Source: an uncultured virus (IMG/VR IMGVR_UViG_2061766007_000136) (taxonomy: Duplodnaviria; Heunggongvirae; Uroviricota; Caudoviricetes). From it: a stretch of 64,000 nt of DNA. This document shows, one piece after another, positions 1,695 to 64,000 of the stretch (its first letter is position 1; every line of letters begins with the position of its first letter). A model generated the notes under the pieces. The model had not been told where the DNA came from, did not search any database, and was given only the letters and a program-made list of their open reading frames with translations. Made by a program: the position numbers and the translations under genes. The stretch is taken from IMG/VR virus record IMGVR_UViG_2061766007_000136; one strand, 5' to 3'.

Positions 1695-1710
1695 CGGCTG
1701 TCGAAAACAA

Positions 1711-1748
1711 AAGCCATGCGGAAAAATCAGCACCGCATGGCTTTTTTA
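1711..1748 (+). terminator. Rho-independent terminator
   Basis: AAGCCATGCGG/CCGCATGGCTT stem followed by a T run, just after the cca stop. Confidence 0.8.
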
Positions 1749-1749
1749 T

Positions 1750-1778
1750 TTGCATTTCCGAAAATTGGATGTATATTA
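1750..1778 (+). promoter_or_regulatory. Recurrent phage promoter motif TTG(CA/AC)W-N16-YATATTA (representative copy)
   Basis: TTGCAT-16 nt-TATATTA; the same motif and spacing recur about 19 times upstream of genes on both strands. Confidence 0.75.
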
Positions 1779-1823
1779 ATAGTGTTGACGTAGAAAACAT
1801 TTAAAATCAAAGGAGAACATATA

Positions 1824-3029
1824 ATGAAGAATCTGATTGTTTTACGTGGAGCACCTGGTTGTGGCAAGTCCACTTTTATCGAGAAATGGAATTTGAAGCA
1901 GTACACCCTGTGCGGTGATTCCATCCGTGAGTTGTTCGAGTCCCCTGTTATGGACAACGAGCATGGTAAGCATACCCTTTCACAGAATCATGATACGGAA
2001 GTCTGGGGCTTGCTCCTGAACCTGCTTGAGCAACGCATGTCGCGTGGCGAGCTGTGCGTCGTGGACGCGACGCACTCCCGTCCGCAGGACTTCCAGAAGT
2101 ACAAGAAGTTCATCGAGAAGTATCGCTACCGCGCATACTGCGTGTCGTTCGCTGACGTACCGATTGAGGTCTGCAAAAAGCAGAATCTGATGCGTCCTGA
2201 GTACAAGCACGTCCCAGAGGAAGTCATCGACAAGATGTACGCACGGATGCAGTCGTTTGACGTGCAGGGCTACTTCAAGGTCGTGAACCACAATGACGAC
2301 GAGACCATCCGCAACATCGTCAACAACTACAAGCCGTTCGATGCGGACAAGTACAGCAAGGTCGTCGTGTTCGGAGACATCCACGGTTGCTTTCAGCCGT
2401 TGAAGGAATACTTCGACGCTAATCCATTCGACGACAACAATCTGTACGTTTTCACGGGCGACTACACCGACCGTGGCATACAGAACAAAGAGGTCGTCGA
2501 GTGGCTGTTGCAACACTACGAGAAGAAGAATGTCATCCTGCTTGAGGGCAACCACGAGCGTTGGGTGCGCGAGTACGCGAACGGCGACTACGACGAGGAG
2601 CTGAAAAAGGGAGAGAAGGACAAGTGCAAGAGTTCCGAATTCTTCTACAATACCGCTCCCCAATTGGTTGATTTCGACAAGAAGGACTTGCGGCAGTTGT
2701 GCCGTTCCTTCCAGACCATCGCATTCTTCAAGTTCGACGGCAAGCGGTACTTCGTGAACCACACGGGTGTCGGATTCCTGCCTGAGCAACTGCTCAGGGA
2801 GAAGGCGAGCCAGTTTGTCTACACGAGCGGTGGCAACGGAACGTACAACGACCCTGTTGACCAGTGGTTCGAGGAGCATGAGTTGGAGCGCAACCCAGAC
2901 TTGTTCCAAATCCACGCCCACCGCAACACGGCGAACGTCCCGATTCGTGCGTCGAAGAATTCGTTCAACCTCTGCGACACCATCGAGGCTGGCGGAAACC
3001 TCCGCATACTTGAAATCACGAAGGACTGA
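1824..3029 (+). CDS. Polynucleotide kinase-phosphatase (P-loop kinase + calcineurin-like metallophosphoesterase)
   Basis: GAPGCGKST Walker A and VVDATH; GDIHG, GDYTDRG and GNHE phosphoesterase motifs; no ligase domain fused. Confidence 0.88.
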   Translation: MKNLIVLRGAPGCGKSTFIEKWNLKQYTLCGDSIRELFESPVMDNEHGKHTLSQNHDTEVWGLLLNLLEQRMSRGELCVVDATHSRPQDFQKYKKFIEKYRYRAYCVSFADVPIEVCKKQNLMRPEYKHVPEEVIDKMYARMQSFDVQGYFKVVNHNDDETIRNIVNNYKPFDADKYSKVVVFGDIHGCFQPLKEYFDANPFDDNNLYVFTGDYTDRGIQNKEVVEWLLQHYEKKNVILLEGNHERWVREYANGDYDEELKKGEKDKCKSSEFFYNTAPQLVDFDKKDLRQLCRSFQTIAFFKFDGKRYFVNHTGVGFLPEQLLREKASQFVYTSGGNGTYNDPVDQWFEEHELERNPDLFQIHAHRNTANVPIRASKNSFNLCDTIEAGGNLRILEITKD

Positions 3030-3030
3030 A

Positions 3031-3729
3031 ATGAATGTCCGTGAATACATCGAACAAGCGATAGACAGGTTCTTCCTGTATCATCCTACATGGTATGTGA
3101 ACCATGACAGGAAGAACCAGCTTATCGAACGTTACGAGAAGAAATACGCTGGCATGGACATGGGGCGGTGCAGTCTGAACATGCTTCAAGTCCTCAACAC
3201 CAACAAGGTGATGTCGCCTTGGACTGAGGAGGAGCGCAACAGGCAACTTGATGAATCCGCATGGCACGAGGCAGGTCATATCCTAGGGTATTTCATCCTC
3301 AACTATCCTCCGAGATACGCATATATCAGCGAGGACGGAGATGGAATCGTCACACCCGATAATGAGGTCGCCAGCATGTTCTATGAACTCAAGAGAATCG
3401 CCTATGTCGGCGGATGGGCTTTCGAGAGAAAGCACTCCACTCTTGACAATTGCAAGATAAGCATAGGGTACGATTATCCAAGGGTGGAAAATTCAGACTG
3501 GGTGATGCTTGGAAAACCGTCAATCGAGGAAATGGACTGTCTTTCACGATACCTGTTCTACCACAACGGGACGGAGGCATTCGCCAAGCTCATCCACGAC
3601 GAGCTGGTTTCAAGGAAACGCCTTTCCCGAAAAAGAATCAGGATGATTTACGAAGAAGGCATGAAAATCAAAAAAATTTCCAAATGCATTTGCAATCTTC
3701 GAAAATGGATGTATATTAGTGGTTGTTAG
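3031..3729 (+). CDS. HEXXH metallopeptidase-like protein (M41/M50-like)
   Basis: AWHEAGH motif; ATG immediately after the previous stop. Confidence 0.55.
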   Translation: MNVREYIEQAIDRFFLYHPTWYVNHDRKNQLIERYEKKYAGMDMGRCSLNMLQVLNTNKVMSPWTEEERNRQLDESAWHEAGHILGYFILNYPPRYAYISEDGDGIVTPDNEVASMFYELKRIAYVGGWAFERKHSTLDNCKISIGYDYPRVENSDWVMLGKPSIEEMDCLSRYLFYHNGTEAFAKLIHDELVSRKRLSRKRIRMIYEEGMKIKKISKCICNLRKWMYISGC

Positions 3730-3804
3730 GAAAAATCGACAAAAAACATGCAGTTTGAATTGACTTTTCCGAAAAACGTACCATATTATATTGTAGTCAT
3801 TTAA

Positions 3805-3881
3805 GTCCCTGTAGTTCAGTTGGACAGAACGGCAGTTTCCTAAACTGCATGTCGCAGGTTCGAGTCCTGTCGGGGATACCA
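3805..3881 (+). tRNA. tRNA-Arg(CCT)
   Basis: Cloverleaf: GTCCCTG/CGGGGAT acceptor, GCAGT-TT CCT AA-ACTGC anticodon arm, GTTCGAGT T loop, CCA end; promoter motif at 3760-3788. Confidence 0.95.
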
Positions 3882-3917
3882 AAGTGTTCAAAGAGTCGTC
3901 ATAAAGGAGTTCGACAC

Positions 3918-4208
3918 ATGAAGAAAGAATCGGTCAAAATCACGAGCGCAAAGAAGAAGCAATTGTCCGTCGCAAGCATCATCGGGATGTCGATGGGGGC
4001 TGAAATCACCAACTACAACCGTCAAATCAAGAATGCGCCGAATGAAAGCGTCAGGAAAGCCTTGATAAAGGCACGTGACTCCTATCTTGAAAAGACGAAA
4101 AAGAAGAAGATTGAAAAGGAAATCGGCAAGCTCAACATTGAAATCCAGAGGAAGACTGCGGAACTCGAAGCTCTGAACCAGCTCAAAATCAAACCGACTG
4201 TCAAATAA
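3918..4208 (+). CDS. Hypothetical basic coiled-coil protein
   Basis: AAGGAG RBS and ORF. Confidence 0.6.
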   Translation: MKKESVKITSAKKKQLSVASIIGMSMGAEITNYNRQIKNAPNESVRKALIKARDSYLEKTKKKKIEKEIGKLNIEIQRKTAELEALNQLKIKPTVK

Positions 4209-4237
4209 GAAAAGCAAAACACACAAGGAGAAAACAC

Positions 4238-6451
4238 ATGAACAAAATGAATTCGTTCAAAATCTCGTCCGCCAAGACCGCCTCTAAAGCCGTCGAAGTC
4301 CCAGTCAACCATATTTTCGTCATTGACTGCTCAGGCTCGATGTCATACGACCTGCCGAAAATCCGCAAACAGTTGAAGAACAAGCTCCCGTCCCTTCTGA
4401 AACAGAACGACACGGTTTCCCTCGTGTGGTTCTCTGGCAAAGGGGAATTTGGCAAGCTGGTCGAGAAAGTCCACATCAACGACGTTTTGGAGTTGCGGCA
4501 ATTGAACGATGCCATCGACCGTTGGCTCAAGCCGATTGGTTGCACTGGCTTTGTCGAACCTCTTCGCACAGTCAAGGACTTGTGCGACACGAACGACGTG
4601 TACTCCATGATGTTCCTTACTGATGGATGTGACAACGAATGGCAACGTTCTGAAATCCTGTCCGCCAGCGAAGACCTCGCCACCCTGCTCGCAAACGCCG
4701 TTTTTGTCGAATACGGCTACTACTGCAACCACTCCCTCCTGACCGAAATGGCTGAAAAGGTGAACGGAGCAGTCCTCTTTGCCGAAGACTTCGACAAGTA
4801 CGACCCGATTTTCGACGGCATCTGCAAGCGCAAGCTGTCGAACAAGCGAATTGAAGTCGAAGTCGGCACCCCCGCCGAAAACTTCGTGTGGAGCGTCTCC
4901 GACGCTGGCGCGATTTCCTACAAGGTCGAAAACGGCAAAGTCTATGTCCCCGAAGACGTGGATGCAGTTTACTGGTTTGACAGCAATGCAACCACCACGG
5001 CTACCGACAGCATGAACTGGAAGCCCCTGTACCAAGGTCTGTCCGCCCTCGCCATGAACCGCAAGTCGGAATTCGTCAAGAAGCAGTTGTCCGACATCGG
5101 CGACGAAGCCCTGTACAACCAGTACGCCAACGCTTTCGGCAAGCAGAACCTCTACGACTTCGCCGACCTCCTGAACCGTGCTGGCACGGACAGCAAGCTC
5201 CGTTTCACGAAAGGCAGGAAAGTCGGTCTGAAACCGAATGAAAATGCGTACACCGTCTTGCAGTTGCTCAACGAGCTTCGCGAAGCGGATGCGCAAATCA
5301 ATCTTGAGAAGTTACAGTACAACCGCATCGGTCGTAGTACCGAAATGAGCGACGAGCTGACGAAAGCCGAGACCGAGGCGTTGAGCGAATCCATCGCCAA
5401 CTCCTCCAATCTCCGTGAAATCAAAGCCCATACGGACGCGGCTGCGCAACTCGCTCAGGAACGCGCACAGATGAAATTCGTCTCGAAGAAGAACATTGTT
5501 CGTATCAATGACTTCACGTACAACGAAACGCGCCCGAACGTCTCCATGCGCGTCAACATCGACGGCACGGTCGGTCTTCCGTCCGATGCCCCGTCCGCGT
5601 TGCCTCATGACTTCCCGACCAGCATCTTCCGCAATTTCACCGTCGTCCGCGACGGCATGGTGAACATCGCGAAGCTTCCTGTCATCATCTCACAGCCGAC
5701 CGTTGACAAGCTGAAAGCAAAAGGCGTTCCGATGACCATCGAAGACGACAGTGTGCGCGTGAATTCGCAGTCCTCAGTCCTCTTCGCCACTCCGAACCCG
5801 AACGGCATCAAATGCACCATCGACCTGCGCTCGATGCCTGTCATCAACGCCAAGATGGTCAAGTCCGTCAGCGCACAGGCTCTCGCGGACAACCTCTACG
5901 AGAACATGAAGTGCAAAGCGGCTGTCAAGGTGTACAAGGGCTTCCTCGACGAACTGGAACCGCCTGAAAAGTCCGCTGGCATCAAAGACCAGTACGGCGA
6001 AGACTGCGCCGAATACCTGAAGTCCCTCGGCATCACGGACGGCGGATTCTCCCCGAAGACCAAACAGGCTGAAGCGACCGACAAGTACATGGCAGTCGAA
6101 ATGGCTATCAAGTTCAAGGGCTTGTCCAAAATCCCGTCCTTCAACGAATTCAAGAAGAAGCTCACGTCAGGCAAGTTCAACGCAGGTGACATGTTGCTGA
6201 AACCCGCCTACGACGAATGCATGGCAAAGAAAGCCTCCATGTCTCAAAAGGATTTCATCGGCTGGCTCAAGACCAACATCAAGACGGCGAACAAGAAAGC
6301 TGGCAATCTCTACGAGAAAGCCATCGAGGACAAGTTCTCCATCGTCGTCGGTCAGACGTGGTTCAACGACCTCGATTTGAACAATCCGACGCTCGTTTCT
6401 AACGGCGTTGACGTGACGTTTGAAATCAAGGACACTGAAGTGGAAATCTGA
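4238..6451 (+). CDS. vWA domain-containing protein
   Basis: N-terminal IFVIDCSGSM MIDAS and FLTDG motifs; 737 aa with strong codon bias. Confidence 0.85.
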   Translation: MNKMNSFKISSAKTASKAVEVPVNHIFVIDCSGSMSYDLPKIRKQLKNKLPSLLKQNDTVSLVWFSGKGEFGKLVEKVHINDVLELRQLNDAIDRWLKPIGCTGFVEPLRTVKDLCDTNDVYSMMFLTDGCDNEWQRSEILSASEDLATLLANAVFVEYGYYCNHSLLTEMAEKVNGAVLFAEDFDKYDPIFDGICKRKLSNKRIEVEVGTPAENFVWSVSDAGAISYKVENGKVYVPEDVDAVYWFDSNATTTATDSMNWKPLYQGLSALAMNRKSEFVKKQLSDIGDEALYNQYANAFGKQNLYDFADLLNRAGTDSKLRFTKGRKVGLKPNENAYTVLQLLNELREADAQINLEKLQYNRIGRSTEMSDELTKAETEALSESIANSSNLREIKAHTDAAAQLAQERAQMKFVSKKNIVRINDFTYNETRPNVSMRVNIDGTVGLPSDAPSALPHDFPTSIFRNFTVVRDGMVNIAKLPVIISQPTVDKLKAKGVPMTIEDDSVRVNSQSSVLFATPNPNGIKCTIDLRSMPVINAKMVKSVSAQALADNLYENMKCKAAVKVYKGFLDELEPPEKSAGIKDQYGEDCAEYLKSLGITDGGFSPKTKQAEATDKYMAVEMAIKFKGLSKIPSFNEFKKKLTSGKFNAGDMLLKPAYDECMAKKASMSQKDFIGWLKTNIKTANKKAGNLYEKAIEDKFSIVVGQTWFNDLDLNNPTLVSNGVDVTFEIKDTEVEI

Positions 6452-6549
6452 CACGAACAATAAAAAAGCGCATGAATTGAAAAAAATTCTCCATCTCCAC
6501 TTGACTTTTTCAATTCATGCGCCATATTAAAGAAAAATGCTGACATGAA

Positions 6550-6595
6550 AAGACTCGAACAGCATTAAAACCAAACAGGAACAAACAGAGTCTAG
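6550..6595 (+). promoter_or_regulatory. 5' leader hairpin with ACAGCA motif (putative protein-binding operator RNA)
   Basis: AAGACTC-GA-ACAGCA...GAGTCTAG lies between the promoter (6501-6529) and the RBS; it matches the terminal stem of the permuted tRNA-like RNAs. Confidence 0.7.
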
Positions 6596-6617
6596 TACAA
6601 AAACAAAGGAGAAAAAC

Positions 6618-8155
6618 ATGTCGAAGATGATTTTTTCAGACGCACTGAAGAACACGCTGAATGATGAGAAGTCCATCACCGAGAACGGGGCGATAGGTTA
6701 CAAGACCTCGAAGTCCGCGCTCGTTGATTTCAACTTCAACGCATCATCGTTCCGCAACAAGGACGAGCAGGAGATTCGCGACGCTTTCGCGGAGGCTTAC
6801 AATGAGAATCCGTTGCTGGCTGTCAAGCTCCTGTTCATGACTGGCGACATCCGTCAGGGCATGGGTGAGCGTCGCACGTTCCGCACGTGCTTCAAGTGGC
6901 TCGCCGAATTCCATGCCAATGACGCGAAGAAGGTCGTGTCCCTCATCCCTGAGTATTCACGTTGGGACATCCTCGTGGACATGCTCGGCACTTCCGTCGA
7001 TACGGAGGCGTTCGGACTGCTCAGGAACCAGTTGGACACCGACACGGACAATTGCCTGAACGGTAAGCCGATTTCGCTCCTCGCGAAGTGGTTGCCTTCA
7101 GTCAACACGTCCAGCCAGACCGCCCGTAAGAAGGCGCGTTCCATCTGTGCCCGTCTCAAGCTGACGGAGCGCACGTACCGCAAGAGGCTGTCACAGCTTC
7201 GCAACTACTCGAACGTCGTCGAGACGAAGATGAGTGCGAACAATTGGGACGGCATCAAGTACGAGGCTGTTCCGTCCAAGGCTAACCTCCTGTACAAGGA
7301 GGCGTTCATGAAGCATGACGAGACCCGCCGCACGGCGTACCTCGATGCTCTTGAGAAGGGCGAGACCAAAATCAACTCCAGTGCGTCGTTCCCTTATGAA
7401 ATCGTTTCACGTTACCACTCCTACGCAGAGGATGCCACGCTTGAGCAGATGTGGAAGGCATTGCCCGACTACACCAACGGCAAGGGCGAGAACACGATTT
7501 GCGTTGTGGACGGAAGCGGTTCCATGTCGTCCAAAATCGGAGGTACGTCCGTCTCCGCAGAAGATGTCGCGCAAAGCCTCGGCATCTACTTCGCTGAGAA
7601 GATGCCTGGTCAGTTCCACAACCAGTACATCACGTTCTCCGAGCGTCCTCAACTCGTCAATTTCGACAACTGCGACACGTTGAAGAGCAAGATTGACGAG
7701 GCGAACCGNNNNNNNNNNNNNNNNNNNNNNNNNNNNNNNNNNNNNNNNNNNTTCTCCGCACGGCGAAGAAGCACAAGCTCTCGCAGAGCGACATGCCGAA
7801 GAGCATCCTCATCCTGTCTGACATGGAATTCGATTCCTGTGTCAGCTTTGGAGACAGGACTCTCTACTGGATGTCGGAGCAGGACAAGCTCAATGCTTGC
7901 AAGACCCTGTTCGAGACCATCGGCGACGAGTACAAGGAGGCGGGCTACGAGCTTCCGAAGCTAGTCTTCTGGAACATCATGTCCCGCACTGGAACCGTCC
8001 CGATGCAGGAAAACAAGAATGGTGTCGTACTGGTGAGCGGGTTCAGCCCGACCATCGCAAGCATGGTTTTCAGCCAGAAGAACAGCCCTTACGAGGTGTT
8101 GCTTGAGAAGCTGAATTCCAAGAGGTACGAGCCTATCGAGCAGGCTCTTGCGTAA
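6618..8155 (+). CDS. DUF2828-family protein (TROVE/Ro60-like helical domain + vWA), interrupted by an N gap
   Basis: TENGA, DIRQGMGERR, RWDIL, SLLAKWLPS, YEAVPSKA, VVDGSGSM, ILSDMEFD, LVFWN and LVSGFSP motifs; two ORF halves either side of the gap at 7709-7750. Confidence 0.85.
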
Positions 8156-8173
8156 GAGGACGTAGCTGACGGG

Positions 8174-8213
8174 AAAGCAGACTGGAAAGGAAACAATCCA
8201 GTCTGCTTTTTTT
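8174..8213 (+). terminator. Rho-independent terminator
   Basis: AAAGCAGACTGGA/TCCAGTCTGCTTT stem followed by a T run. Confidence 0.8.
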
Positions 8214-8229
8214 GTGAAAGAGGAATGCA

Positions 8230-8802
8230 ATGAAAAGACCTTACAATCCAATCGAAGACGGTCATATCAGCCGAAAGAAGATGAATGAATTTCTCCAAGC
8301 GAAGCAACAGAGGAAGAAGTACATCCTGTATGATAAAGTGGGCGACTTGTGGAGAATCATGGCTTGCAATACGATTTGGATGAGCATATATGGAGGAGGG
8401 ATAACTGTCTGGGAAGGGGATATTGGAGGATTTGTCGAATCGGAAGACAATCTTTCACATGATGGAAACTGCTGGATTTACGATACGGCGAAATCAGTCG
8501 GTCATGCGATTGTAAAGGACAATGCGCTTATCAAGCATTCCTCCATTGTAGAACAATACGCAATCGTATCTGGTGATGCAGTGTTGAATGATTGCACAAT
8601 AGTATCTGGAAATGCGACAGTATGTGACAAGGTTGTGACCAACGGAAATGTGTTCATAGTGGACGATGCCGTAGTGTGCGACGAAGCAAAACTGAACGGC
8701 GCAATCTATGTGTGTGGAAATTCGTGCGTCTGCGGACGTGCCAATGTATATACGTATAAAGGCGATTCAAAGATAATAGAAGGAGACATGGTGGTATGCT
8801 GA
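8230..8802 (+). CDS. Phage protein with left-handed beta-helix (hexapeptide-like) repeats
   Basis: GGFVESEDNLSHDGNCW followed by VxGxAxV repeats. Confidence 0.75.
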   Translation: MKRPYNPIEDGHISRKKMNEFLQAKQQRKKYILYDKVGDLWRIMACNTIWMSIYGGGITVWEGDIGGFVESEDNLSHDGNCWIYDTAKSVGHAIVKDNALIKHSSIVEQYAIVSGDAVLNDCTIVSGNATVCDKVVTNGNVFIVDDAVVCDEAKLNGAIYVCGNSCVCGRANVYTYKGDSKIIEGDMVVC

Positions 8803-9914
8803 TAGAAGATTTTAAAAAGACTATTCCAGATGTAATTGAGCTTATGAAAATTACACCACAAAATCCAAAGTGGCATGGAGAAGGCGATGTATGGACGCAT
8901 ACGCAGATGGTCATGGACGCATTGCATCTGATGGATGAATATCATTCTTTAACGGATATTGAACAAAAAGTGCTGGATTATGCATGTTTATTGCATGATA
9001 TTGGAAAAATTGAATGCACCCGTGTCGAAGAAGGGGAGATTACATCTCGTGGACATTCTTTTAGAAGTTCCAAAATGGCTCGCAAATTGATGTGGAATGT
9101 TGGTTTTAATGGGGAAAAACTTCTTGAATTCAGGGAAAGTGTATGCGCTTTGATTCGTATGCACGAAAAACCATTGTACTTTTTCAATGATGCAGAAGAA
9201 GACGAATATGAAGCGAAAATGAGTGTAAGACGTTTGTCTTGTTTCACTCCTGCTCCTTATTATAATCTCAACATGTTGCATATTCTTTCATTTGCTGATA
9301 TGAATGGAAGGATATGCAATGAAAAAACCAATTCTTTTGATTCAGTAGATTTGTTCAGGGAATGTGCCTTTGAAAATGACTGCCTTTATCAGCCTGCCCC
9401 ATGCTATGATGACTTTTCTCGTTATTTATTTCTAAACGGAAAGAAGATGTATCCCAATCAGAGAATGTATGACAACACATGGGGAAAAGTATGCATCATG
9501 TCTGGGCTTCCTGCTTCAGGAAAAACGACATGGATTGAAAAGAACCGTGCGGACAAACCAATTATTTCACTTGATGAAATCAGACGGGAAAACGGAATAA
9601 AGCCGTCGAGATGCCAAGGCAAGGTCATGGATATAGCTTTCAATCAGGCAAAGGAGTATCTCAGGAAGCATCAGGAGTTCACATGGGATGCCACTTGTCT
9701 AAATCCAGATGTCAGGGCTTTAATCATCAAGCTTTGCATGAATTATCACGCATTTGTCTCATTGTCTTATTTTGAAGTAAGTGATGCGGAAAGAGTGGAA
9801 CGCAATGCAAATAGAAAATGGGTGGTTCCAGACAATGTAATGGATGAAATGAAGGAAAATGTCATGCCTCCGATATATAGCGAAGCACATTCTGTTTCGT
9901 GGAATTGTCATTGA
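8796..9914 (+). CDS. HD-domain phosphohydrolase fused to a P-loop (AAA_33-like) kinase
   Basis: HGEGDVWTHT and LLHDIGK; C-terminal GLPASGKTT and WDAT. Confidence 0.85.
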   Translation: MLIEDFKKTIPDVIELMKITPQNPKWHGEGDVWTHTQMVMDALHLMDEYHSLTDIEQKVLDYACLLHDIGKIECTRVEEGEITSRGHSFRSSKMARKLMWNVGFNGEKLLEFRESVCALIRMHEKPLYFFNDAEEDEYEAKMSVRRLSCFTPAPYYNLNMLHILSFADMNGRICNEKTNSFDSVDLFRECAFENDCLYQPAPCYDDFSRYLFLNGKKMYPNQRMYDNTWGKVCIMSGLPASGKTTWIEKNRADKPIISLDEIRRENGIKPSRCQGKVMDIAFNQAKEYLRKHQEFTWDATCLNPDVRALIIKLCMNYHAFVSLSYFEVSDAERVERNANRKWVVPDNVMDEMKENVMPPIYSEAHSVSWNCH

Positions 9915-29435: not shown

Positions 29436-30755
29436 TTATTTTCCTTTGTATTTGTCAATCACCTGTCGTTCAATTATTTTGATGTACCAGTCGTTGATGG
29501 CATTGAAGTTGGAAGAATTCGGTAAATTCGATTTCTCGAACATCCCGTCCATCTCATCCATCATCTTGGTCGCCTTGTTCAACACTTCTTCATAAGAATA
29601 AACCCCATTGCGGATGTTCAAGAGGTATTCCCGTTCCTCTCCTTCAAAATTAACTTTCGGAATTCCAGTCTTCGCGATGGATTCGGAACAGATGAGAAGT
29701 CTCATGGTGTGCATGAGATTCTTCCAATCGACCTTACCTTCGCTATCCCAGTCATTCGTGTATCTCGCCTCGTTACGGTTGTTCATCCATTCCCAGAAAG
29801 AAGCGTATTCTTTACGAGCGCGGGTGTATCCTTCGATGTCAATGCTAATGACACCTTCCCAGTCGTCGATTTCGCGTTCCTTGGAAATAGACTCGAATTT
29901 GAGGTTCATCGCCTCTTCGTCGAAGAAGCCCTTTCCGTTGCGGTACAGACGATAGACATTTGGGATGCCTTCGACTTTGGAAATGTCGTACTTGTCGAAA
30001 TCCTCGTTGAATTCGCGTGGTCTGAACGGGAATCCATTCAAATCCCTGCGGTACGAGTAGACGAAGCTCCTGAACGTAGGAGGAAGCATGCTTTTGACTT
30101 CTTTAGACAGGAACAGCATGATGGAGCCATCACCAATCTTGTTCCAGTCGATGATGTTGGGTTTCAGCAACGGGTCGTCAGGATTCCACTCGACATTCTC
30201 TTTTTGGAGATAGGCGAGAAAATCAGAACCGAAATGCTGTTGAATCCACATCTTGTTCAAGTCGGACTGCATCACCCTCGTCATGCAGTTGCATGGTTGG
30301 TTCAGAAGCATGCGGAGAAGCTTGATTCCGTCTTCATTGACGTACTTGGACACGGAATTGCCCTTCTTGTTCAAGCCTTTGGCTCTCTGAATCTGGGCAT
30401 AGGCGTAACCCTTGAACGTATGCAGAGCGCGTTTGCTCATGAACCACTCGCGATGGCTGATAAGTTCGTCATACAAAGGGGATTTGTAGAGAATCGCCCT
30501 TTCAGGAACCCACAGCAACTCGATGATGTTCGGATTGCATTCGCTCGCAAGTTTCAGGAACTTACCGAGAGAGTAGTATTTCGTATCCTGCTTGTCGTCG
30601 GCAATCTCGCCGTTTTGACGACCGTTGATGTTCAGGACATCGCGGATGTCTTCAAGGTAGATTCCTCTTTTGTCCAAATCGGACGACGGGGTGTTAAGCC
30701 CGTAAAGATGGCTTCCAGCCACGGATTCAAAAATCAAATTTTTTGGTCTTTCCAT
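29436..30755 (-). CDS. DNA polymerase beta-superfamily nucleotidyltransferase (YcgL/RlaP-like)
   Basis: GSHLYGLNTPSSDLDKRG, CNPNIIELLW, KNLMHTMRL, LLNIRNG. Confidence 0.85.
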   Translation of the reverse strand: MERPKNLIFESVAGSHLYGLNTPSSDLDKRGIYLEDIRDVLNINGRQNGEIADDKQDTKYYSLGKFLKLASECNPNIIELLWVPERAILYKSPLYDELISHREWFMSKRALHTFKGYAYAQIQRAKGLNKKGNSVSKYVNEDGIKLLRMLLNQPCNCMTRVMQSDLNKMWIQQHFGSDFLAYLQKENVEWNPDDPLLKPNIIDWNKIGDGSIMLFLSKEVKSMLPPTFRSFVYSYRRDLNGFPFRPREFNEDFDKYDISKVEGIPNVYRLYRNGKGFFDEEAMNLKFESISKEREIDDWEGVISIDIEGYTRARKEYASFWEWMNNRNEARYTNDWDSEGKVDWKNLMHTMRLLICSESIAKTGIPKVNFEGEEREYLLNIRNGVYSYEEVLNKATKMMDEMDGMFEKSNLPNSSNFNAINDWYIKIIERQVIDKYKGK

Positions 30756-55987: not shown

Positions 55988-57176
55988 TTACTTTAATGGT
56001 GTTATCACCACTGGCGTACCACACACCTCTATCGGGTACTTTACTTTTCTATCAGAAGAAAAGGCTCTTTCTCCGACTACTTTTCTCATTATGTTTAAAC
56101 TTCCGTTCAAGTCTGCATTAATGAGTCTTCCTGTTTGACTTTTGAAAAGTCCTCTCTTTATTCTACTTCCAACATAAGCATCATGATGTCTAATTTCCTC
56201 AAAATCAACGAAGCTACATTTACTTGTATAAGATTCATTGATTTTCAAAACATTGATTCCCATCAATCTGCATTTGTAGAAAAGCATTTTAATGAACTTT
56301 TCAAATGGAATTGAAACAAAGTTCTGATTGTTTCTTCCACCGATGTTCACGTCTTGTTTCCATCCGTCATTCTTCCCTATGATTAGAGTATTGACATGAT
56401 TGGAAACTAGTTGATTCGTGATAAATCGGCTTGCCTTATGAAGATAATCAGAAATTTTATTATTTCTTTTCCTATTTAAAGATTTTGATTTGTTTGATTT
56501 TAAATTCTGTAATGTTGCCTTTTTCTTATTGTAAAACTGATTTATTGACTTCAATGGNNNNNNNNNNNNNNNNNNNNNNNNNNAAATTAAATGAAACAGT
56601 AGCAAGATTATTCACTCCCAAATCAATTGAAGCATATTTTCCATTGTCGTTTTTCAATAATGATTCATTTACTTCATAAATAATTTCAATTGACATAGTA
56701 TTCAGTGTAACTCGTGGAACAATTCTTACTTCTTTAATTTTCTGGATTTCAGGTCTTATTTTTATTACTTCATTGATTCCTGAAAGTTTTAAAATATTTT
56801 GCTTAAGCAATTTGCTTGAAATTGCCTGATTGGTAAAAACAGTTACATATCTTCCATCCTTTTCAAGATAACGTGGTATTTTAACCTTTCCATTCTTCAA
56901 TTTTAAAAGCCCGAAAAACGATTTGAAATTCTGGTCAGCCATCTTCATTGTCTGTTGACTTACTTTAGTAGGCAAAGCATAATAATCTGGATTCCTTGTC
57001 TGTATGAAAATTCCGTTTGAAGCAGAATAGTTCAAATACTTTCCAGTTTTGAAAAAGTGCTGTCTGATAGCATATAAAGAAGCATTATACAAGTTCTTGG
57101 ACAAAAAACAAAAATTATCCAATTCCTTATATAAGGCTGTCCCTTTATTCACTTGTATTGTTTCAGTCAATCTCAT
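55988..57176 (-). CDS. tnpB: IS607 TnpB RNA-guided nuclease (N gap inside)
   Basis: SKNLYN, ASIDLGVNNL, DYLHKAS, ESYTSKCS, NADLNGSLNI. Confidence 0.9.
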
Positions 57177-57747
57177 CTTTCTTTTTCAGTTCTTCAATCA
57201 ATTGCTCTGTTTTTCTTTTGCTTCTTCTCAATCCATACACTCTCGCACAAAAACTGGTAATTACACTTACGAAATCTTGAATCAAATCCTGCTTATCTTC
57301 AATTACTTCATTAACTATTTCAATATCTCGTCCTTGAGAATTGAGAAGTTTCTTGATGTAATTCACTCCGAATCTTGCCAGTCTATCTTTGTGTTCAACG
57401 ACAATCAAATCAATTGAACGGTCTGTCAATAAGCTCTCCAATTTTTTACGATTGTCATTCAAACCAGAGCCAATTTCCATCTCAATTCGACTGACCTTGT
57501 ATCCTTTCGCATTGCAAAAGGAAATCAATCTGTCTGCCTGGGATTGAAGATTTGACTTGTTTTCACTTGAACTCACTCTGGCATAAACTGCAACTTTCTT
57601 TTCGTGATTATCGTCAAAAACAATCCTTACTCGTCCAGTTGCAGTTCTCTCTATCTGGACTTCCCCTTTGCGTATCCAGTTCCAGACTGTCCTATTCGTG
57701 ACATTCTTCATTCTGGCGTATTCTGATATTTTGTACTGTTGCTTCAT
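57163..57747 (-). CDS. tnpA: IS607 transposase TnpA (HTH + serine recombinase)
   Basis: VYARVSS, EIGSGLN, EHKDRLARFG, SFCARVYG. Confidence 0.93.
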   Translation of the reverse strand: MKQQYKISEYARMKNVTNRTVWNWIRKGEVQIERTATGRVRIVFDDNHEKKVAVYARVSSSENKSNLQSQADRLISFCNAKGYKVSRIEMEIGSGLNDNRKKLESLLTDRSIDLIVVEHKDRLARFGVNYIKKLLNSQGRDIEIVNEVIEDKQDLIQDFVSVITSFCARVYGLRRSKRKTEQLIEELKKKDEID

Positions 57748-57913
57748 ACTAATTATATCCAATATAAACAAAAAGTGAAATTTTTCATTTGTTTTACATG
57801 AAAATTCATTAAAATCTAATATCTGTTATTATACTTTTCAATATGCCGTGATTTGTAAAATTCACTACATGAATCATATTAATATAAGCGATAAATCAAC
57901 AGGAGAAAACATT

Positions 57914-60071: not shown

Positions 60072-60262
60072 CGCTTGTGCCTCTTACTTTTCTTCCTTGA
60101 TTCTATCCAAACAAAAACTCCAAACAAGTCAGATTCTGAGAAACCGACCTTTTAGAAAAGCCCCGCCATTCGACAGGGCAACTTCCCTTAATATACACCA
60201 TCCAGAAGGAATTGCAAGAGGCACCAACAAAAAATCTTTAATTAAACTAATTCAATGAAAAC

Positions 60263-60303
60263 AAAAAAGCCCCTGTATGGAAACCGCCATACAGGGGCTT
60301 TTT
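60263..60303. terminator. Terminator closing the minus-strand tRNA/ncRNA island
   Basis: AAAAAAGCCCCTGTATGG/CCATACAGGGGCTTTTT. Confidence 0.85.
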
Positions 60304-60590
60304 ACTTTTAACAAGACAGAGTATGTTAGCACTGTTTGTTGAAAAGCAAATCTAATACACGGTGCAGACATGGCTGACTAGACCTTTCCTTTACCGTGTG
60401 GCTTCTGTGCCTTGATGCATTGGTTTGCATACGGCTTTCCACCGCCAAGGCAAGCATGAGGCACATGGTCGTCAACCTGATTTCACCGATTAGCCGAGCC
60501 AGTCCGACCACGGTTACATTCACCCCATGCTATTTGCGACTTTACTGTTCGCCGTCAGTCCAAGCAAGCCTGAGTAACTTGCCTAAAAGA

Positions 60591-60820
60591 AAAAGATGGT
60601 TGCAATGATTACGACTGGGTTTCGTAGGAGCACTTCATCGGGACTATATCGCTTCCTGTTCTCCCGCAGACTACTTCATGCCATTTGTTATTCCCCGTCT
60701 GCGGTCATACTCATCATGCAGTACATTGCAATATGGAGACCACGTATCTTTGGTACGTTGCGCCTTTCGGCGCATTTGGCGATGGCAACGCCTACTCTTT
60801 ACTCTTTTTTACCATCTTTT
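60591..60820 (-). ncRNA. Structured ncRNA, family B copy 1 (unknown class)
   Basis: Closed by AAAAGAUGGU/ACCAUCUUUU; shares motifs and covarying helices with 62974..63237. Confidence 0.7.
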
Positions 60821-60826
60821 GAAACT

Positions 60827-60903
60827 TGGTGGAGCTGGTGGGACTTGAACCCGCGACCCCCTGCATGCCATGCAGGTGCTCTAGCCAACTGAGCTACAAC
60901 CCC
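60827..60903 (-). tRNA. tRNA-Ala(GGC)
   Basis: Cloverleaf with G3:U70, CCTGC-AT GGC AT-GCAGG, A-CCA end. Confidence 0.95.
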
Positions 60904-60907
60904 ATTA

Positions 60908-61055
60908 AACAACTTGAACAAGCATACTGTTTTAACCACATAAACTACCGCTTGGCACTGTGTACCGCGCAGCCGCGATTCGAACACGGTTCTTCATGTC
61001 CAGTTGGTCGTCACCACAAGCTAGCATCGACAACGACACTGTAATCCAAGTTGTT
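60908..61055 (-). ncRNA. Permuted tRNA-like RNA, divergent copy (5)
   Basis: Terminal stem AACAACUUGGA/UUCAAGUUGUU then UU-ACAGUG; T arm CCGUG-UUCGAAU-CGCGG precedes a CAAGCGGUA D-loop-like segment. Confidence 0.6.
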
Positions 61056-61061
61056 CAAAAT

Positions 61062-61133
61062 TGGTAGCGGATTGCGAGTCGAACGCATTGGTCAGGTTAT
61101 GAGTCTGACTACCTCTCCGTAGGTGTATCCGCA
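61062..61133 (-). tRNA. Atypical tRNA with CAT anticodon (Met/fMet-like)
   Basis: GCGGAT/ATCCGC acceptor with 1:72 mismatch, CT CAT AA loop, TTCGACT T loop, A-CCA; short D arm. Confidence 0.7.
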
Positions 61134-61648
61134 ATCATAAAATCTTCTGTTTTTCAAAGAACACTAATTAATATGGCTCGCTTTTCTGAAAAGTCAAGCC
61201 GATTTGTCGAAAAATCCAGATTTTTCCCATCGTCCTGCTGTTACCAAGACAACAGGAAAAATCCAGAGGTGGCAATCGCCTCATCCACTATCGGCTTCCG
61301 CTTGCTCCCGCCAAGGTGGATTAGGGACGAGGTGGAACTCTCACTTACGGATAGCGTTGGCGACCGTCCTGCATGAATGCCGTCATGCACCAGCGAGCGT
61401 ACAATCTTCAATGAAAAACCCACTCAAAAGATTGATTCATGCTGGCTCGGCGATGTCTAGACAATGCCGAGGGTGTTTTGACCTCTTGCGAGGCATGATT
61501 TGAAAGAAAATCAAGACGCTGTTTTTTCTTTTTGCATGTTGCCATNNNNNNNNNNCCCACTCAAAAGATTGATTCATGCTGGCTCGGCGATGTCTAGACA
61601 AAGCCGAGGGTGTTTCGACCTCTTGCGAGGCGTGATTTGAAAGAAAAT

Positions 61649-61776
61649 CAAGACGCTGTTTTTTCTTTTTGCATGTTGCCATTACACCAAGTCTTCCTTT
61701 CGGTTGACTGCGGGATTCGAACCCGCATCTTTTCTTTAACAGAGAAATAAGAAGAAATAGTCGCTGTAAGCGTCTT
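61649..61776 (-). ncRNA. Permuted tRNA-like RNA copy 1
   Basis: AAGACGC-UU-ACAGCGA...GCGUCUUG; T arm GCGGG-UUCGAAU-CCCGC, GAAA-capped acceptor stem, then D arm; own promoter motif at 61794-61821. Confidence 0.8.
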
Positions 61777-61841
61777 TTTTAACTTACACTATTAATATGA
61801 TACGTTTTTCTGAAAAGTCAAGTCATATTGATGATTTTTTA

Positions 61842-61932
61842 TGGCGGAGGGTGAAGGATTCGAACCTTCGGTGCGCTTTCGCGACACGGCGACTTTCGAG
61901 GTCGCTACCATAAACCGCTCGGACAACCCTCC
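61842..61932 (-). tRNA. tRNA-Ser(CGA)
   Basis: GCGAC-CT CGA AA-GTCGC, long variable arm, G-CCA end. Confidence 0.95.
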
Positions 61933-61947
61933 ATCGGGAAAATCCTA

Positions 61948-62038
61948 TGGCGGAGGGTACAGGATTCGAACCTGTGAGCCATGTTTCAGACTATCGAGCT
62001 TCCAACTCGACGCAATAGACCAACTCTGCCAACCCTCC
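61948..62038 (-). tRNA. tRNA-Ser(GGA)
   Basis: TCGAG-TT GGA AG-CTCGA, long variable arm, G-CCA end. Confidence 0.95.
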
Positions 62039-62049
62039 ACTTTTAAAAA

Positions 62050-62176
62050 CAAGGCGCGTAATGTTTCATAATAGACGCTCTGACCAATCTGAGCTACCTC
62101 GTCTTTTCGGACGCAGGACGGGACTCGAACCCGCGACATTCTATGCCCATGAATGAATGTTTGCTGTAAACGCCTT
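62050..62176 (-). ncRNA. Permuted tRNA-like RNA copy 2
   Basis: AAGGCGU-UU-ACAGCAA...GCGCCUUG; AUAGA/UCUAU anticodon-like stem, T arm, looped acceptor stem, D arm UAGCUCAGAUUGGUCAGAGC. Confidence 0.88.
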
Positions 62177-62191
62177 AAAAATCTTATGCAA

Positions 62192-62269
62192 TGGCAGGAG
62201 CAACAGGATTCGAACCTATACCATGAGATTTGGAGTCACATATGCTAGCCATTGAAACACCATGCTCCT
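62192..62269 (-). tRNA. tRNA-Trp(CCA)
   Basis: AGGAGCA/TGCTCCT acceptor, CT CCA AA loop, G-CCA end. Confidence 0.92.
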
Positions 62270-62317
62270 GCTTGTCATACAATTAATATACACCGACTTT
62301 CTGAAAAGTCAAGTAAT

Positions 62318-62425
62318 CAAGACACGTTTTTTTCTTGCGTTAGACCGCTCCGCCAAGCCTTTGCAGGCTACGAGATTCGAACTCGTGTCATCTTCCAGAT
62401 GAGAATGATTTGCTGTCCGCGTCTT
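62318..62425 (-). ncRNA. Permuted tRNA-like RNA copy 3
   Basis: AAGACGC-GG-ACAGCAA...GUGUCUUG; ACGAG-UUCGAAU-CUCGU, AGCCU-GCAA-AGGCU, GCG-GAGCGGUCUAA-CGC. Confidence 0.85.
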
Positions 62426-62435
62426 ATTAAAAAAC

Positions 62436-62576
62436 CAAGGCACAGTTTTGTAATTGTCCTTCGTGTACGCCACACCACCTAGCCGTCCCTTTCGGGAGAC
62501 TGCGGGATTCGAACCCGCGAGTTGCTTTCGCATGCTAAAGGATTTCATCCAAATGTATATTTGCTGCGTGTGCCTT
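62436..62576 (-). ncRNA. Permuted tRNA-like RNA copy 4
   Basis: AAGGCAC-AC-GCAGCAA...GUGCCUUG; variable-arm-like UGC-GAAA-GCA, T arm, UCCC-GAAA-GGGA acceptor cap, D-arm-like hairpin, UCCUU/AAGGA stem. Confidence 0.85.
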
Positions 62577-62587
62577 TATGAAAATCA

Positions 62588-62665
62588 TGGTAGCGAAGGA
62601 GAGGGTCGAACTCTCAACAAATGGCTTCTAAGACCACCGCGTCTGCCAGATTGCGCCACTTCGCC
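62588..62665 (-). tRNA. tRNA-Leu(TAG), short variable loop
   Basis: GTGGT-CT TAG AA-GCCAT; 5-nt variable loop; A-CCA end. Confidence 0.88.
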
Positions 62666-62668
62666 ATC

Positions 62669-62754
62669 TGGTATCTGGGGAGGGACTCGAACCCTCAAGG
62701 ATTGCTCCACATGGACCTCAACCATGCGCGTCTGCCAAATTGCGCCACCCAGAC
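62669..62754 (-). tRNA. tRNA-Leu(GAG)
   Basis: CATGG-TT GAG GT-CCATG; long variable arm; A-CCA end. Confidence 0.93.
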
Positions 62755-62771
62755 ATGATGTGAAAACCTGA

Positions 62772-62845
62772 TACCCACGGTGGGACTCGAACCCACAATC
62801 ACCGCGTCCTGAACACGGCGCGTCTGCCGATTGCGCCACATGGGT
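62772..62845 (-). tRNA. tRNA-Leu(CAG), short variable loop, CCA not encoded
   Basis: CCGTG-TT CAG GA-CGCGG; 5-nt variable loop; A73 followed by TCA. Confidence 0.88.
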
Positions 62846-62858
62846 ATCGCAAAAGAAA

Positions 62859-62962
62859 AAAGGGCTGGAGGTCTCGAACCTCCGATTCCTATCCACCACA
62901 AGCGTTTTTCCAATGCGGGGAAGCCTAGGCTTCCAAACTTCCCTGTCCGAACTACGCCCTTT
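62859..62962 (-). ncRNA. tRNA-like element (acceptor stem + T arm, non-canonical interior)
   Basis: AAGGGC/GCCCUU ends, UAGUUC after the 5' strand, GGAGG-UUCGAGA-CCUCC T arm; no canonical anticodon arm or CCA. Confidence 0.45.
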
Positions 62963-62973
62963 TCTCAAAGGAT

Positions 62974-63237
62974 AAAGACGGCTACCGTGATTTCGACTGG
63001 ATTTCGTGTCCGATACGCAATCGGGATGTGCCCAGTAATCAGACGACTCCTCACCAAGGTTACTTGTTTGCAAGATTCTGTCCCGCCACAGGGTGAGTAT
63101 CACTCATACGCAGTACACGGCAGTAAAGGGATAATCCATAATTCATGAGAATTAATGCATCGCGAAGACACTGCTTGTCAGGGGGATGGGATTTAAAGCC
63201 TTGCAAGTCTTTTTCCCAATCTCTTTTTACCGTCTTT
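62974..63237 (-). ncRNA. Structured ncRNA, family B copy 2 (unknown class)
   Basis: Closed by AAAGACGGU/GCCGUCUUU; paralogous to 60591..60820. Confidence 0.7.
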
Positions 63238-63254
63238 GTGAAAACTTATGTTAT

Positions 63255-63328
63255 TGGTACCACGAGAGGGACTCGAACCCTCGACCCCTGAATGGGAATC
63301 AGGAATTTTACCCCTAAACTATCATGGC
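63255..63328 (-). tRNA. tRNA with CCC anticodon (Gly), A73 discriminator
   Basis: GCCATGA/TCGTGGT acceptor, CCTGA-TT CCC AT-TCAGG, A-CCA end. Confidence 0.88.
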
Positions 63329-63356
63329 ACTTTAAAAATTGTATCTGTAAAAACCT

Positions 63357-63399
63357 TGGAGCCAGCGGTCAGGCTCGAACTGACGACCTACGCATTACC
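63357..63399 (-). tRNA. 3' half of a tRNA-Thr (NGT), starting at the anticodon
   Basis: GGT AA TGCGT AGGTC GTCAG-TTCGAGC-CTGAC CGCTGGC T CCA, directly after the HNH stop codon. Confidence 0.75.
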
Positions 63400-63400
63400 T

Positions 63401-64000
63401 TTAATAAGATTTTCCTTCTTTGTATCTTTGCATTCTCCAAAACCTTCCACTATGACGATTCTTTCCAGTAAAGGTATCAGTTTGCATATTACAATTTCCA
63501 CATATCAAACGGAAATTATCAATAGAACTATTTTCACTATTTCCATCTATATGGTCAACAACCAAAGGAATTGGTTGACCCATCCATTCTGTATTTCCGC
63601 ATATTTGGCATTTATGTCCATCTCGTTCAAGAAGAAATCGTCTAACTATCTTTCTGCTTGCTTCTCCATTTTTTCCATTTTTAAAAGAACCTGTTTCAAG
63701 AATCTCTTTCTTTATTTCATTCCATTGAAAATCATTTTGACATTGATTATTACAATATATTTTTTTCTTACTTATTGGCTTTCCGCAATACAAACAATGA
63801 TTTTCTTGTTTTCTTAAATGATTGTTATGCTTTGCTGAACAAGATTGAGAACAAAATTTGTTATAACGATGTTCATAATCTAATTCTTTTCCACATTCTT
63901 GACAAACTCTTGGAGAATCTTGATAATCTTGACGACGCTTTTCATTCGCCTGTTCTCTTTTTTCCTTTGATTTCTCCCAACCAAGCTTGCCGCATTCAGA
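63401..64000 (-). CDS. HNH homing endonuclease with CxxCGK...CS..C zinc-finger repeats (5' end outside window)
   Basis: Frame is open to the window edge; CQECGK...FCSQSC, CLYCGK...YCNNQC, CQICG, VDHIDGN, N..LICGNCN. Confidence 0.88.
   Translation of the reverse strand, partial: SECGKLGWEKSKEKREQANEKRRQDYQDSPRVCQECGKELDYEHRYNKFCSQSCSAKHNNHLRKQENHCLYCGKPISKKKIYCNNQCQNDFQWNEIKKEILETGSFKNGKNGEASRKIVRRFLLERDGHKCQICGNTEWMGQPIPLVVDHIDGNSENSSIDNFRLICGNCNMQTDTFTGKNRHSGRFWRMQRYKEGKSY

Follow-up and report, generated by a model that had tools for sequence, protein, structure and literature searches.

A candidate family of structured RNAs in the tRNA island of a large cattle-gut phage

Two similar elements downstream of tRNA genes

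The 64,000 nucleotides (nt) of DNA analyzed here, referred to below as the window, belong to IMG/VR record IMGVR_UViG_2061766007_000136, an uncultured virus of the Caudoviricetes, and represent a scaffold of a large phage. Positions 60300-63400 of the window (~3 kb) form a coding-free island of eight tRNAs, permuted-tRNA-like RNAs, other conserved RNAs and terminators, within which lie two similar elements designated copy A and copy B. A first-pass annotation had read them as paralogous noncoding RNAs (ncRNAs) of an unrecognised class, encoded on the minus strand and each starting just downstream of a tRNA. A check of the sequence of the window agrees with this placement and found all of the strings that the annotation had quoted, with gaps between tRNA and RNA of 6 nt for A and 17 nt for B:

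63255-63328, minus strand: tRNA-Gly(CCC), directly upstream of copy B
62974-63237, minus strand: copy B, whole RNA, 264 nt
60827-60903, minus strand: tRNA-Ala(GGC), directly upstream of copy A
60591-60820, minus strand: copy A, whole RNA, 230 nt; minimum free energy (MFE) -64.3 kcal/mol, z -2.67, 0 of 200 shuffles equally stable; contigs of four RNA libraries on 60599-60821

The resemblance between the two copies is concentrated at both ends and in a central block (72 % column identity overall in a MAFFT alignment), and 20 nt near the 3' end are nearly identical in the two paralogues while their peripheral domains resist alignment. With up to three mismatches permitted, this 20-nt block occurs exactly twice in the 64 kb, against a chance expectation of 0.08, and two or more matches were found in none of 100 shuffles. 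A covariance model trained on just A and its metagenomic orthologue, from which B was excluded and which was used for all model searches reported here, scores A itself at 301.8 bits and finds B at 53.7 bits (E 4e-15), its sole further match in the window being noise (6.5 bits, E 0.87). We are highly confident that A and B represent a genuine structured RNA gene family.

Comparison with the 4227 models of Rfam 15, run on the whole window at the gathering threshold and on 60200-63700 at E up to 10, likewise left the class unrecognised. All nine matches in the window at the gathering threshold are tRNAs, and none of the 39 matches obtained in 60200-63700 at E up to 10 lies on the core of A or of B. 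Sub-threshold overlaps with the edges of the copies are limited to two, RF04321 (14.6 bits against 47) and RF01759 (16.5 bits against 50). No description of the family was found in Rfam 15 or in the literature, the latter not being searchable by sequence, supplements aside, such that an unnamed earlier sighting is possible.

Nested core fold and its covariation

The fold common to A and B consists of a nested core, P1-P2-P2a-P3 from the ends inwards, and of two peripheral domains. P1, of 9 base pairs (bp), closes the molecule, and its 3' strand continues unbroken into the 3' strand of P2 (7 bp); P1 thereby stacks directly on P2 in a continuous 16-bp helix, while on the 5' side an A-rich joiner (J1) and a multi-hairpin domain (D1) are inserted between the two. 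P2 is followed inwards by a 1x6 internal loop in which a U lies opposite CGNAAU, whose GNAA is a GNRA-type tetrad, then by P2a (4 bp, ACUG/CAGU), by a second loop whose 5' strand ends in GA and whose 3' strand begins with GAAA, and by the innermost core helix, P3 (3 bp), which is capped by domain D2. The parts of copy A, in 5' to 3' order of the RNA, are as follows:

60811-60819, minus strand: P1 5' strand, pairs with 60592-60600
60802-60810, minus strand: A-rich joiner J1, conserved in the alignments with B at 63221-63228
60731-60801, minus strand: peripheral domain D1, with three hairpins beneath a short stem that closes it; D1 of B is 63123-63220
60724-60730, minus strand: P2 5' strand, pairs with 60601-60607; in B, 63116-63122 with 62983-62989
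60719-60722, minus strand: P2a 5' strand ACUG, pairs with 60614-60617 (CAGU); in B, 63111-63114 with 62996-62999
60708-60718, minus strand: 5' side of the internal loop, variable in length with GA at its end, plus P3 5' strand (60708-60710); in B, 63101-63110
60627-60707, minus strand: peripheral domain D2, 8-bp hairpin P4 plus a second arm; in B, 63009-63100
60624-60626, minus strand: P3 3' strand; in B, 63006-63008
60608-60623, minus strand: conserved 3'-strand block GAAACC-CAGU-CGUAAU with two GNRA-like tetrads, GAAA and GNAA; in B, 62990-63005
60601-60607, minus strand: P2 3' strand, continuous with the P1 3' strand
60592-60600, minus strand: P1 3' strand, from the pairing alignment

The D1 domains of A and B could not be aligned with each other, in keeping with the differing peripheral domains reported by the first-pass annotation. 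A UCCCGAU string present in D2 of both copies could pair with a G-rich loop, a pairing on which no variant is informative. Kink-turns have a three-nt bulge followed by tandem G-A pairs, the opposite strand running straight into the next helix; by comparison, GA faces GA beside P3 in the present RNAs, with a 5' bulge of 2-6 nt and three to four extra bases on the 3' strand before P2a.

Pairing statistics were computed on a three-sequence alignment (A, its orthologue and B; 48 pairs) with 500 shuffles and with controls in which the pairing partner was slid. All 131 of the 131 cells pair, compared to 92.8 +/- 1.6 % in shuffles, and 11 of the 48 pairs have changed on both sides, compared to 3.5 +/- 1.6 in shuffles and 0-2 in the slid controls; neither value was reached in any of the 500 shuffles. 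In P1, six of the nine pairs are invariant, two have changed on one side and one is compensatory (U-A in A, C-G in B). Two of the seven pairs of P2 have changed on both sides from A to B (A-U to C-G and A-U to G-C) and one has changed on one side (G-C to G-U). P3 shows one compensatory change (A-U to G-C) among its three pairs and no one-side change, and the four pairs of P2a are invariant in A, the orthologue and B, with changes on neither one side nor both. The compensatory changes previously claimed for three helices are thus real in this pair-by-pair comparison of A with B, and are those of P1, P2 and P3. The G-U pairs of P1 and P2 occur only if the minus strand, which is also that of the tRNAs, is the RNA.

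Contigs from RNA libraries of two studies represent a diverged variant of A with 23 listed substitutions, 15 of which are at positions unpaired in the model. Four more make up two compensatory pairs, U-A to C-G in hairpin 2 of D1 and G-C to U-A in hairpin 3 of D1, and none falls in P2 or P4; the exchange in hairpin 3 is common to this variant and to the orthologue of A on cattle-gut contig L181 described below. The variant has also changed the C of CAGU to A, along with a 3-nt deletion on the opposite strand, and its P2a would be a perfect 5-bp helix, ACUUG/CAAGU, if the deletion is counted upward from the first omitted letter. Counting upward fits a single-base deletion at 60658; counted downward, P2a of the variant would lose one pair. 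An A-U to C-G exchange at positions 167/192 would be consistent with a short helix in D2 abutting P3. Among variants of B, also from two studies, four of the five substitutions at predicted pairs retain pairing, and one P2 pair that is G-C in A and G-U in B is A-U in two B variants. As to the internal loops, whose bases AUGA, GAAA and CGWAAU had all been described as conserved, the GAAA of the 3' strand and the CGNAAU block are indeed kept in A, B and the A variant, but AUGA is not universal: the 5' internal loop of A has 8 nt, that of B 7 and that of the A variant 4, the last retaining only the final GA.

RNA-library contigs, operon context and relatives

Words of the island were found in 20 of the 24 listed public runs, representing 15 studies, whose records name bovine gut or gut metagenome as the source. 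Contigs from four metatranscriptome runs, each of a different study (X11, X17, X18 and X20), were mapped on 60300-63400; all four RNA libraries have contigs on A and two of the four (X11 and X20) have contigs on B:

X11: on A, 60372-60797, 1 difference
X17: on A, 60599-60778, 0 differences
X18: on A, 60639-60795, 0 differences
X18: on A, 60585-60797, 26 differences
X20: on A, 60615-60821, 0 differences
X20: on A, 60659-60810, 20 differences
X11: on B, 62985-63213
X20: on B, 62979-63213

The contigs on A and B are 157-449 nt long, roughly the size of the RNA, and the one ending at 60821 stops 6 nt from the tRNA. In two studies (runs X11 and X18), contigs on A break off at 60797, one of them with adapter at the loose end, and the second X18 contig does so at 60795, while those on B stop twice, in two studies, at 63213, the position that matches the stops in A and lies ~24 nt inside the predicted 5' end. 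These shared inner stops may reflect a processing site, a stop of reverse transcription or an effect of assembly, and their coincidence is a weak hint only. Nothing follows from the finding that X17 and X18 have no contigs on B, or from the lack of cover in several bins of the island, and the depths, being counted per contig, cannot rank the RNAs. With sequences present in RNA-library contigs, helices that covary and G-U pairs possible on the minus strand alone, the earlier call of a structured ncRNA is upheld.

Copy A is part of an operon extending from a promoter-like site at 61197 to a terminator-like hairpin at 60264, and the operons of tRNAs and ncRNAs that hold these RNAs are of the sigma-70 type:

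61170-61197, minus strand: promoter-like site of the A operon, of the TTGACTTTTCAGAAA-N8-ATA type
60264-60303, minus strand: terminator-like hairpin ending the A operon, conserved in L181

Three exact matches to TTGACTTTTCAGAAA-N8-ATA lie in the island (62312, 61821 and 61197, minus strand) and two with one to two mismatches lie elsewhere (3760 and 16378, plus strand); five matches were obtained in none of 100 shuffles, and the tRNA islands of two related phages (G001 and G002, see below) use a similar motif. The same pattern was found at seven loci in IMG/VR, none of them similar to the island. A tRNA-Arg with the island type of promoter is located at 3760-3881, amid the RNA repair genes considered further on.

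Two contigs from cattle-gut metagenomes, L181 and L182, recovered in one metagenome scan, carry the same near-identical orthologue of A (300.1 bits). It is placed between tRNA-Ala and tRNA-Glu and thus has tRNAs on both flanks, and the two contigs share with the island of the window the neighbouring RNAs and the promoter type. In L181 the terminal helix is extendable. Other searches were negative. Of four pattern scans of IMG/VR, the first gave two loci with the same coding sequence, a chance match; the second gave 60 loci (eight distinct sequences), none with the loop or stem features; the third gave at least 118 loci, with no upstream motif in a family-like setting among the matches listed; and the fourth gave a single locus without a covariance-model match. 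A pattern scan of 185,579 species genomes returned ten loci, none of which matched the model at E up to 10 and which by eye are chance matches, and the best matches in GenBank phages were merely 26-31 nt long (E 0.7-0.9). No homologue was seen beyond A and B, L181 and L182 and the bovine-gut RNA contigs, and the family is therefore confined, to the extent that these searches show, to a single lineage of large phages of the cattle gut.

The window otherwise encodes an NAD ligase, a clamp loader, a Pol III fragment, ParB, Mom and HNH proteins, as well as a set of proteins suggestive of RNA handling: a CCA-adding enzyme, a Pnkp-like kinase-phosphatase, an HD-kinase, RlaP, a VWA protein and a DUF2828 (TROVE-like) protein with a VWA-like domain:

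324-9914, plus strand, and 29436-30755, minus strand: RNA repair or quality-control gene set, in which the CCA-adding enzyme is 324-1694, the Pnkp-like protein 1824-3029, the VWA protein 4238-6451 and RlaP 29436-30755
6618-7964, plus strand: TROVE-like gene (DUF2828, E 3.4e-37, and VWA-like domain), whose neighbour encodes a VWA protein of 737 amino acids

Using the TROVE-like protein, three related phage records were found in IMG/VR (43-69 % identity): G001 (255 kb, estimated completeness 78 %), G002 (329 kb, 100 %) and G003 (94 kb, 76 %), any of which may be incomplete. G001 and G002 have terminal repeats and tRNA islands. The RNA was found in none of the three, either with the covariance model or, in G001 and G002, with relaxed regular expressions; the single model candidate, G002:134687-134764 (15.3 bits), was rejected because it lies inside an open reading frame (ORF). 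The absence of the RNA from all three relatives that have the TROVE-like protein speaks against its being an obligate companion of that protein. We note that the tRNA islands of G001 (L228, 6879-7274) and G002 (L216, 11138-11533) contain a transfer-messenger RNA (tmRNA; RF00023, 56.5 and 57.7 bits, above the gathering score), and that no tmRNA was seen in the 64-kb window.

A number of other elements were observed in the island and near it:

63355-64000, minus strand: 3' half of a tRNA (T-arm, acceptor strand, CCA) immediately past the stop codon of an ORF for an HNH endonuclease; the arrangement resembles a tRNA gene interrupted by an intron with a homing endonuclease, the 5' part lying beyond the end of the window
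62860-62960, minus strand: tRNA-like element that follows copy B directly and combines an acceptor-like stem of 4 bp with a good T-arm and a long insert; called by neither ARAGORN nor Rfam
~62580-62440, 62430-62320, 62180-62050, 61780-61650 and perhaps 61050-60920, minus strand: four or five circularly-permuted-tRNA-like RNAs
61546-61555: run of 10 N flanked by an imperfect ~95-nt repeat, looks like an assembly join within the island; the window has 15 N runs in all
61210-61440 and 60330-60585, minus strand: noncoding, conserved in L181 (72-75 % identity), present in RNA-library contigs and without Rfam match; probably further structured RNAs of unassigned class
56526-57771, minus strand: low-GC (0.32) insert with an IS607-type serine recombinase and a TnpB-like piece broken by an N run; a string near it recurs in G001 and G002

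The permuted-tRNA-like RNAs, which are probably the first of the two ncRNA families of the first-pass annotation, display a T-arm, a loop-closed acceptor-like stem, a D-arm and a long closing stem, the layout of the bacterial Y RNA YrlA.

Proposed role and comparison with known RNAs

On balance, we think it probable, if not by much, that the paralogous genes A and B encode a small, stable RNA with extensive structure, ~230-265 nt in length, which is restricted to one lineage, is released from tRNA operon transcripts, serves as a folded scaffold or decoy and is not self-cleaving. The RNA would be transcribed together with the tRNAs of its operon and freed by tRNA-processing enzymes, namely RNase P at the downstream tRNA and 3'-end processing of the upstream one. 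The P1-P2 stack, the two GNRA-like internal loops and the A-rich joiner may then form a rigid platform for recognition in trans, the most likely partner being a protein from the phage RNA-handling set or from the host; D1 and D2, being divergent, could tune or diversify the paralogues and would give them different reach. The Ro-like (TROVE-like) protein would be the obvious candidate partner, although the absence of the RNA from the three relatives argues against an obligate pair. A bolder version of this proposal, which we put forward only tentatively and consider unlikely, is that A and B represent a new, ornate class of phage RNA with a function of its own, either as subunit or decoy of an RNA-repair or quality-control machine (CCA-adding enzyme, Pnkp, RlaP, Ro-like protein) or as a catalytic or self-assembling RNA, with paralogues diversified in a 3-kb RNA island.

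Several observations weigh against the scaffold or decoy reading. The RNA is missing from G001, G002 and G003. RNA-library contigs alone do not prove transcription, since carry-over of DNA could explain them; moreover, one X11 record spans A into the next RNA and a second spans tRNA-Ala into A, such that processing may be incomplete. The three-sequence alignment was fitted to the model, and with A and its orthologue being 97 % identical it holds in effect two lineages; only ~4 distinct sequences from two paralogue lineages are available altogether, which makes the covariation statistics weak by the standards of R-scape. Two changes in the A variant break pairs (U-C in hairpin 2 and C-A in P3). 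Finally, the MFE of copy B is unremarkable by itself (z -1.03, with 31 of 200 shuffles as stable).

A more specific relationship with the Ro-like protein, that of a Y RNA whose ACGAAA block in the terminal stem binds the TROVE/VWA protein and whose variable domains tether other factors in the way that a Y RNA connects Ro60 with polynucleotide phosphorylase (PNPase), appears improbable to us in spite of several likenesses. The window encodes both the DUF2828 protein with its VWA-like domain and the 737-residue VWA neighbour, and one of the permuted-tRNA-like RNAs of the island has a weak match to YrlA (RF02553; 28.8 bits against a gathering score of 69). According to one study, the terminal stem of bacterial Y RNAs bears, near the 5' end, a GNCGAAN0-1G motif that is thought to be the Ro60 site, and YrlA genes are situated at most ~4 kb from the Ro60 gene and share its strand (PMC4201824). 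Another report describes a Thermus phage Ro60 that binds two phage-encoded Y-like RNAs, found through their CGAA motif (PMC12135203). Y RNAs (YrlA, Yrn1) further resemble A and B in being modular, in closing their 5' and 3' ends with a stem that bears a CGAA block, kept in both A and B, in belonging to genomes with a Ro-like protein and in sometimes occurring as two or more different copies. In A and B, however, the CGAA is preceded by UA or CA and followed by AC or AU, so that the G expected two bases before it is a U or a C, and the block is on the 3' strand and not near the 5' end. Nor do A and B possess a T-arm or a D-arm: no T-loop sequence is present in D1 or D2, and no tRNA or YrlA model matches them at E up to 10. 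The TROVE-like gene is ~53 kb away on the opposite strand, unlike the close, same-strand YrlA genes that the first of these sources describes, and the three relatives have the protein without the RNA.

Slightly less probable again is a role confined to the operon itself, in which the fold would merely organise the processing of the polycistronic tRNA transcript or stabilise it, with P1-P2 for instance as a double-stranded processing stem, and would be functionless once released. The RNA does always directly follow a tRNA, and in L181 is flanked by tRNAs on both sides; the continuous 16-bp helix, extendable in L181, would suit a processing stem, and the matching inner contig stops of A (60797, 60795) and B (63213) are again a weak hint. 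A cis-acting spacer has no need of conserved internal-loop sequence, however, and yet 20 nt are nearly identical in A and B, nor does it require 230-265 nt of structure when the other tRNA-tRNA spacers of the island measure 3-16 nt.

The first-pass annotation had suggested a ribozyme or a protein-binding RNA. That the RNA is a self-cleaving or otherwise catalytic ribozyme seems to us quite unlikely. Ribozymes typically combine a conserved core with peripheral domains that vary, and the succession CUG...AUGA...GAAA...GUC is reminiscent of the hammerhead, whose consensus comprises a CUGAUGA box, GAAA and an unpaired cleavage triplet in a three-helix junction. A and B have GA and GAAA flanking a short helix, much as in hammerhead domain 2, with CUG and GUC strings nearby. 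The hammerhead reading, the only concrete likeness to a ribozyme, was nonetheless rejected: A has an interrupted box, B has CGUAUGA in its place and the A variant keeps no more than GA; in every copy the CUG is paired, in P2a, with the AGU that belongs to the would-be GUC triplet; and a helix III is lacking. Searches at E up to 10 matched no hammerhead, twister, pistol, hatchet or other ribozyme family, and the would-be cleavage site is crossed without interruption by RNA-library contigs, which is a hint only.

We assign an equally low probability to a small-scale, RNA-only assembly in the manner of ROOL and GOLLD, in which A and B might, by analogy, multimerise through loop-loop contacts without protein. 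At 230-265 nt, the RNA compares with ~580 nt for ROOL. ROOL and GOLLD are encoded by phages or prophages, often by tRNA islands, are of unknown function and form nanocages, with many GOLLD members longer than 800 nt and ROOL named for its rumen origin (bioRxiv 10.1101/2024.12.08.627333). The likenesses comprise phage origin, a location beside a tRNA island, an elaborate structure, the lack of a known protein partner or known function and the rumen habitat. The differences are the smaller size of A and B (230-264 nt), the absence of any Rfam match, to ROOL and GOLLD included, a distribution that is narrow rather than wide and, by eye, the lack of a conserved palindromic loop common to the two copies.

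The least credible alternatives are a highly divergent housekeeping RNA (RNase P RNA, tmRNA, 6S RNA or signal recognition particle RNA) and no RNA gene at all (a coding sequence or a DNA-level repeat), for while the terminal 5'/3' pairing and multi-domain build are those of RNase P RNA, a conserved strand of which the 3' block also loosely resembles, and the sub-threshold match to permuted tmRNA (RF04321, E 5.4) covers tRNA-Ala and the first 39 nt of A, the cores match none of these four families at E up to 10, every supported helix is nested and no P4-type pseudoknot is present, there is neither T-arm nor tag reading frame, such that the RNase P-like and permuted-tmRNA readings were both rejected, and the ORFs that overlap A and B also traverse tRNA genes while the G-U pairs are strand-specific.

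An older parallel is provided by species 1 and species 2 of phage T4, small stable RNAs of unknown function that are co-transcribed and co-processed with a tRNA cluster; their sizes differ from those of A and B, for which the GenBank phages yielded no sequence similarity. A and B are best described as a new family within a known kind, the structured phage RNAs of tRNA islands to which no function has been assigned. Their narrow distribution limits their general importance. The non-tRNA RNAs of large-phage tRNA islands (ROOL, GOLLD, phage Y RNAs) are, on the other hand, among the least understood of structured RNAs, and A and B offer a compact example of 230-265 nt with a defined core, two paralogues, evidence from RNA libraries, Y-like RNAs adjoining, and Ro-like and RNA-repair proteins in the same genome. 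Their size is suited to probing, crystallography, electron cryomicroscopy and pull-downs with a small number of candidate phage proteins, approaches that could reveal the purpose of such RNAs.

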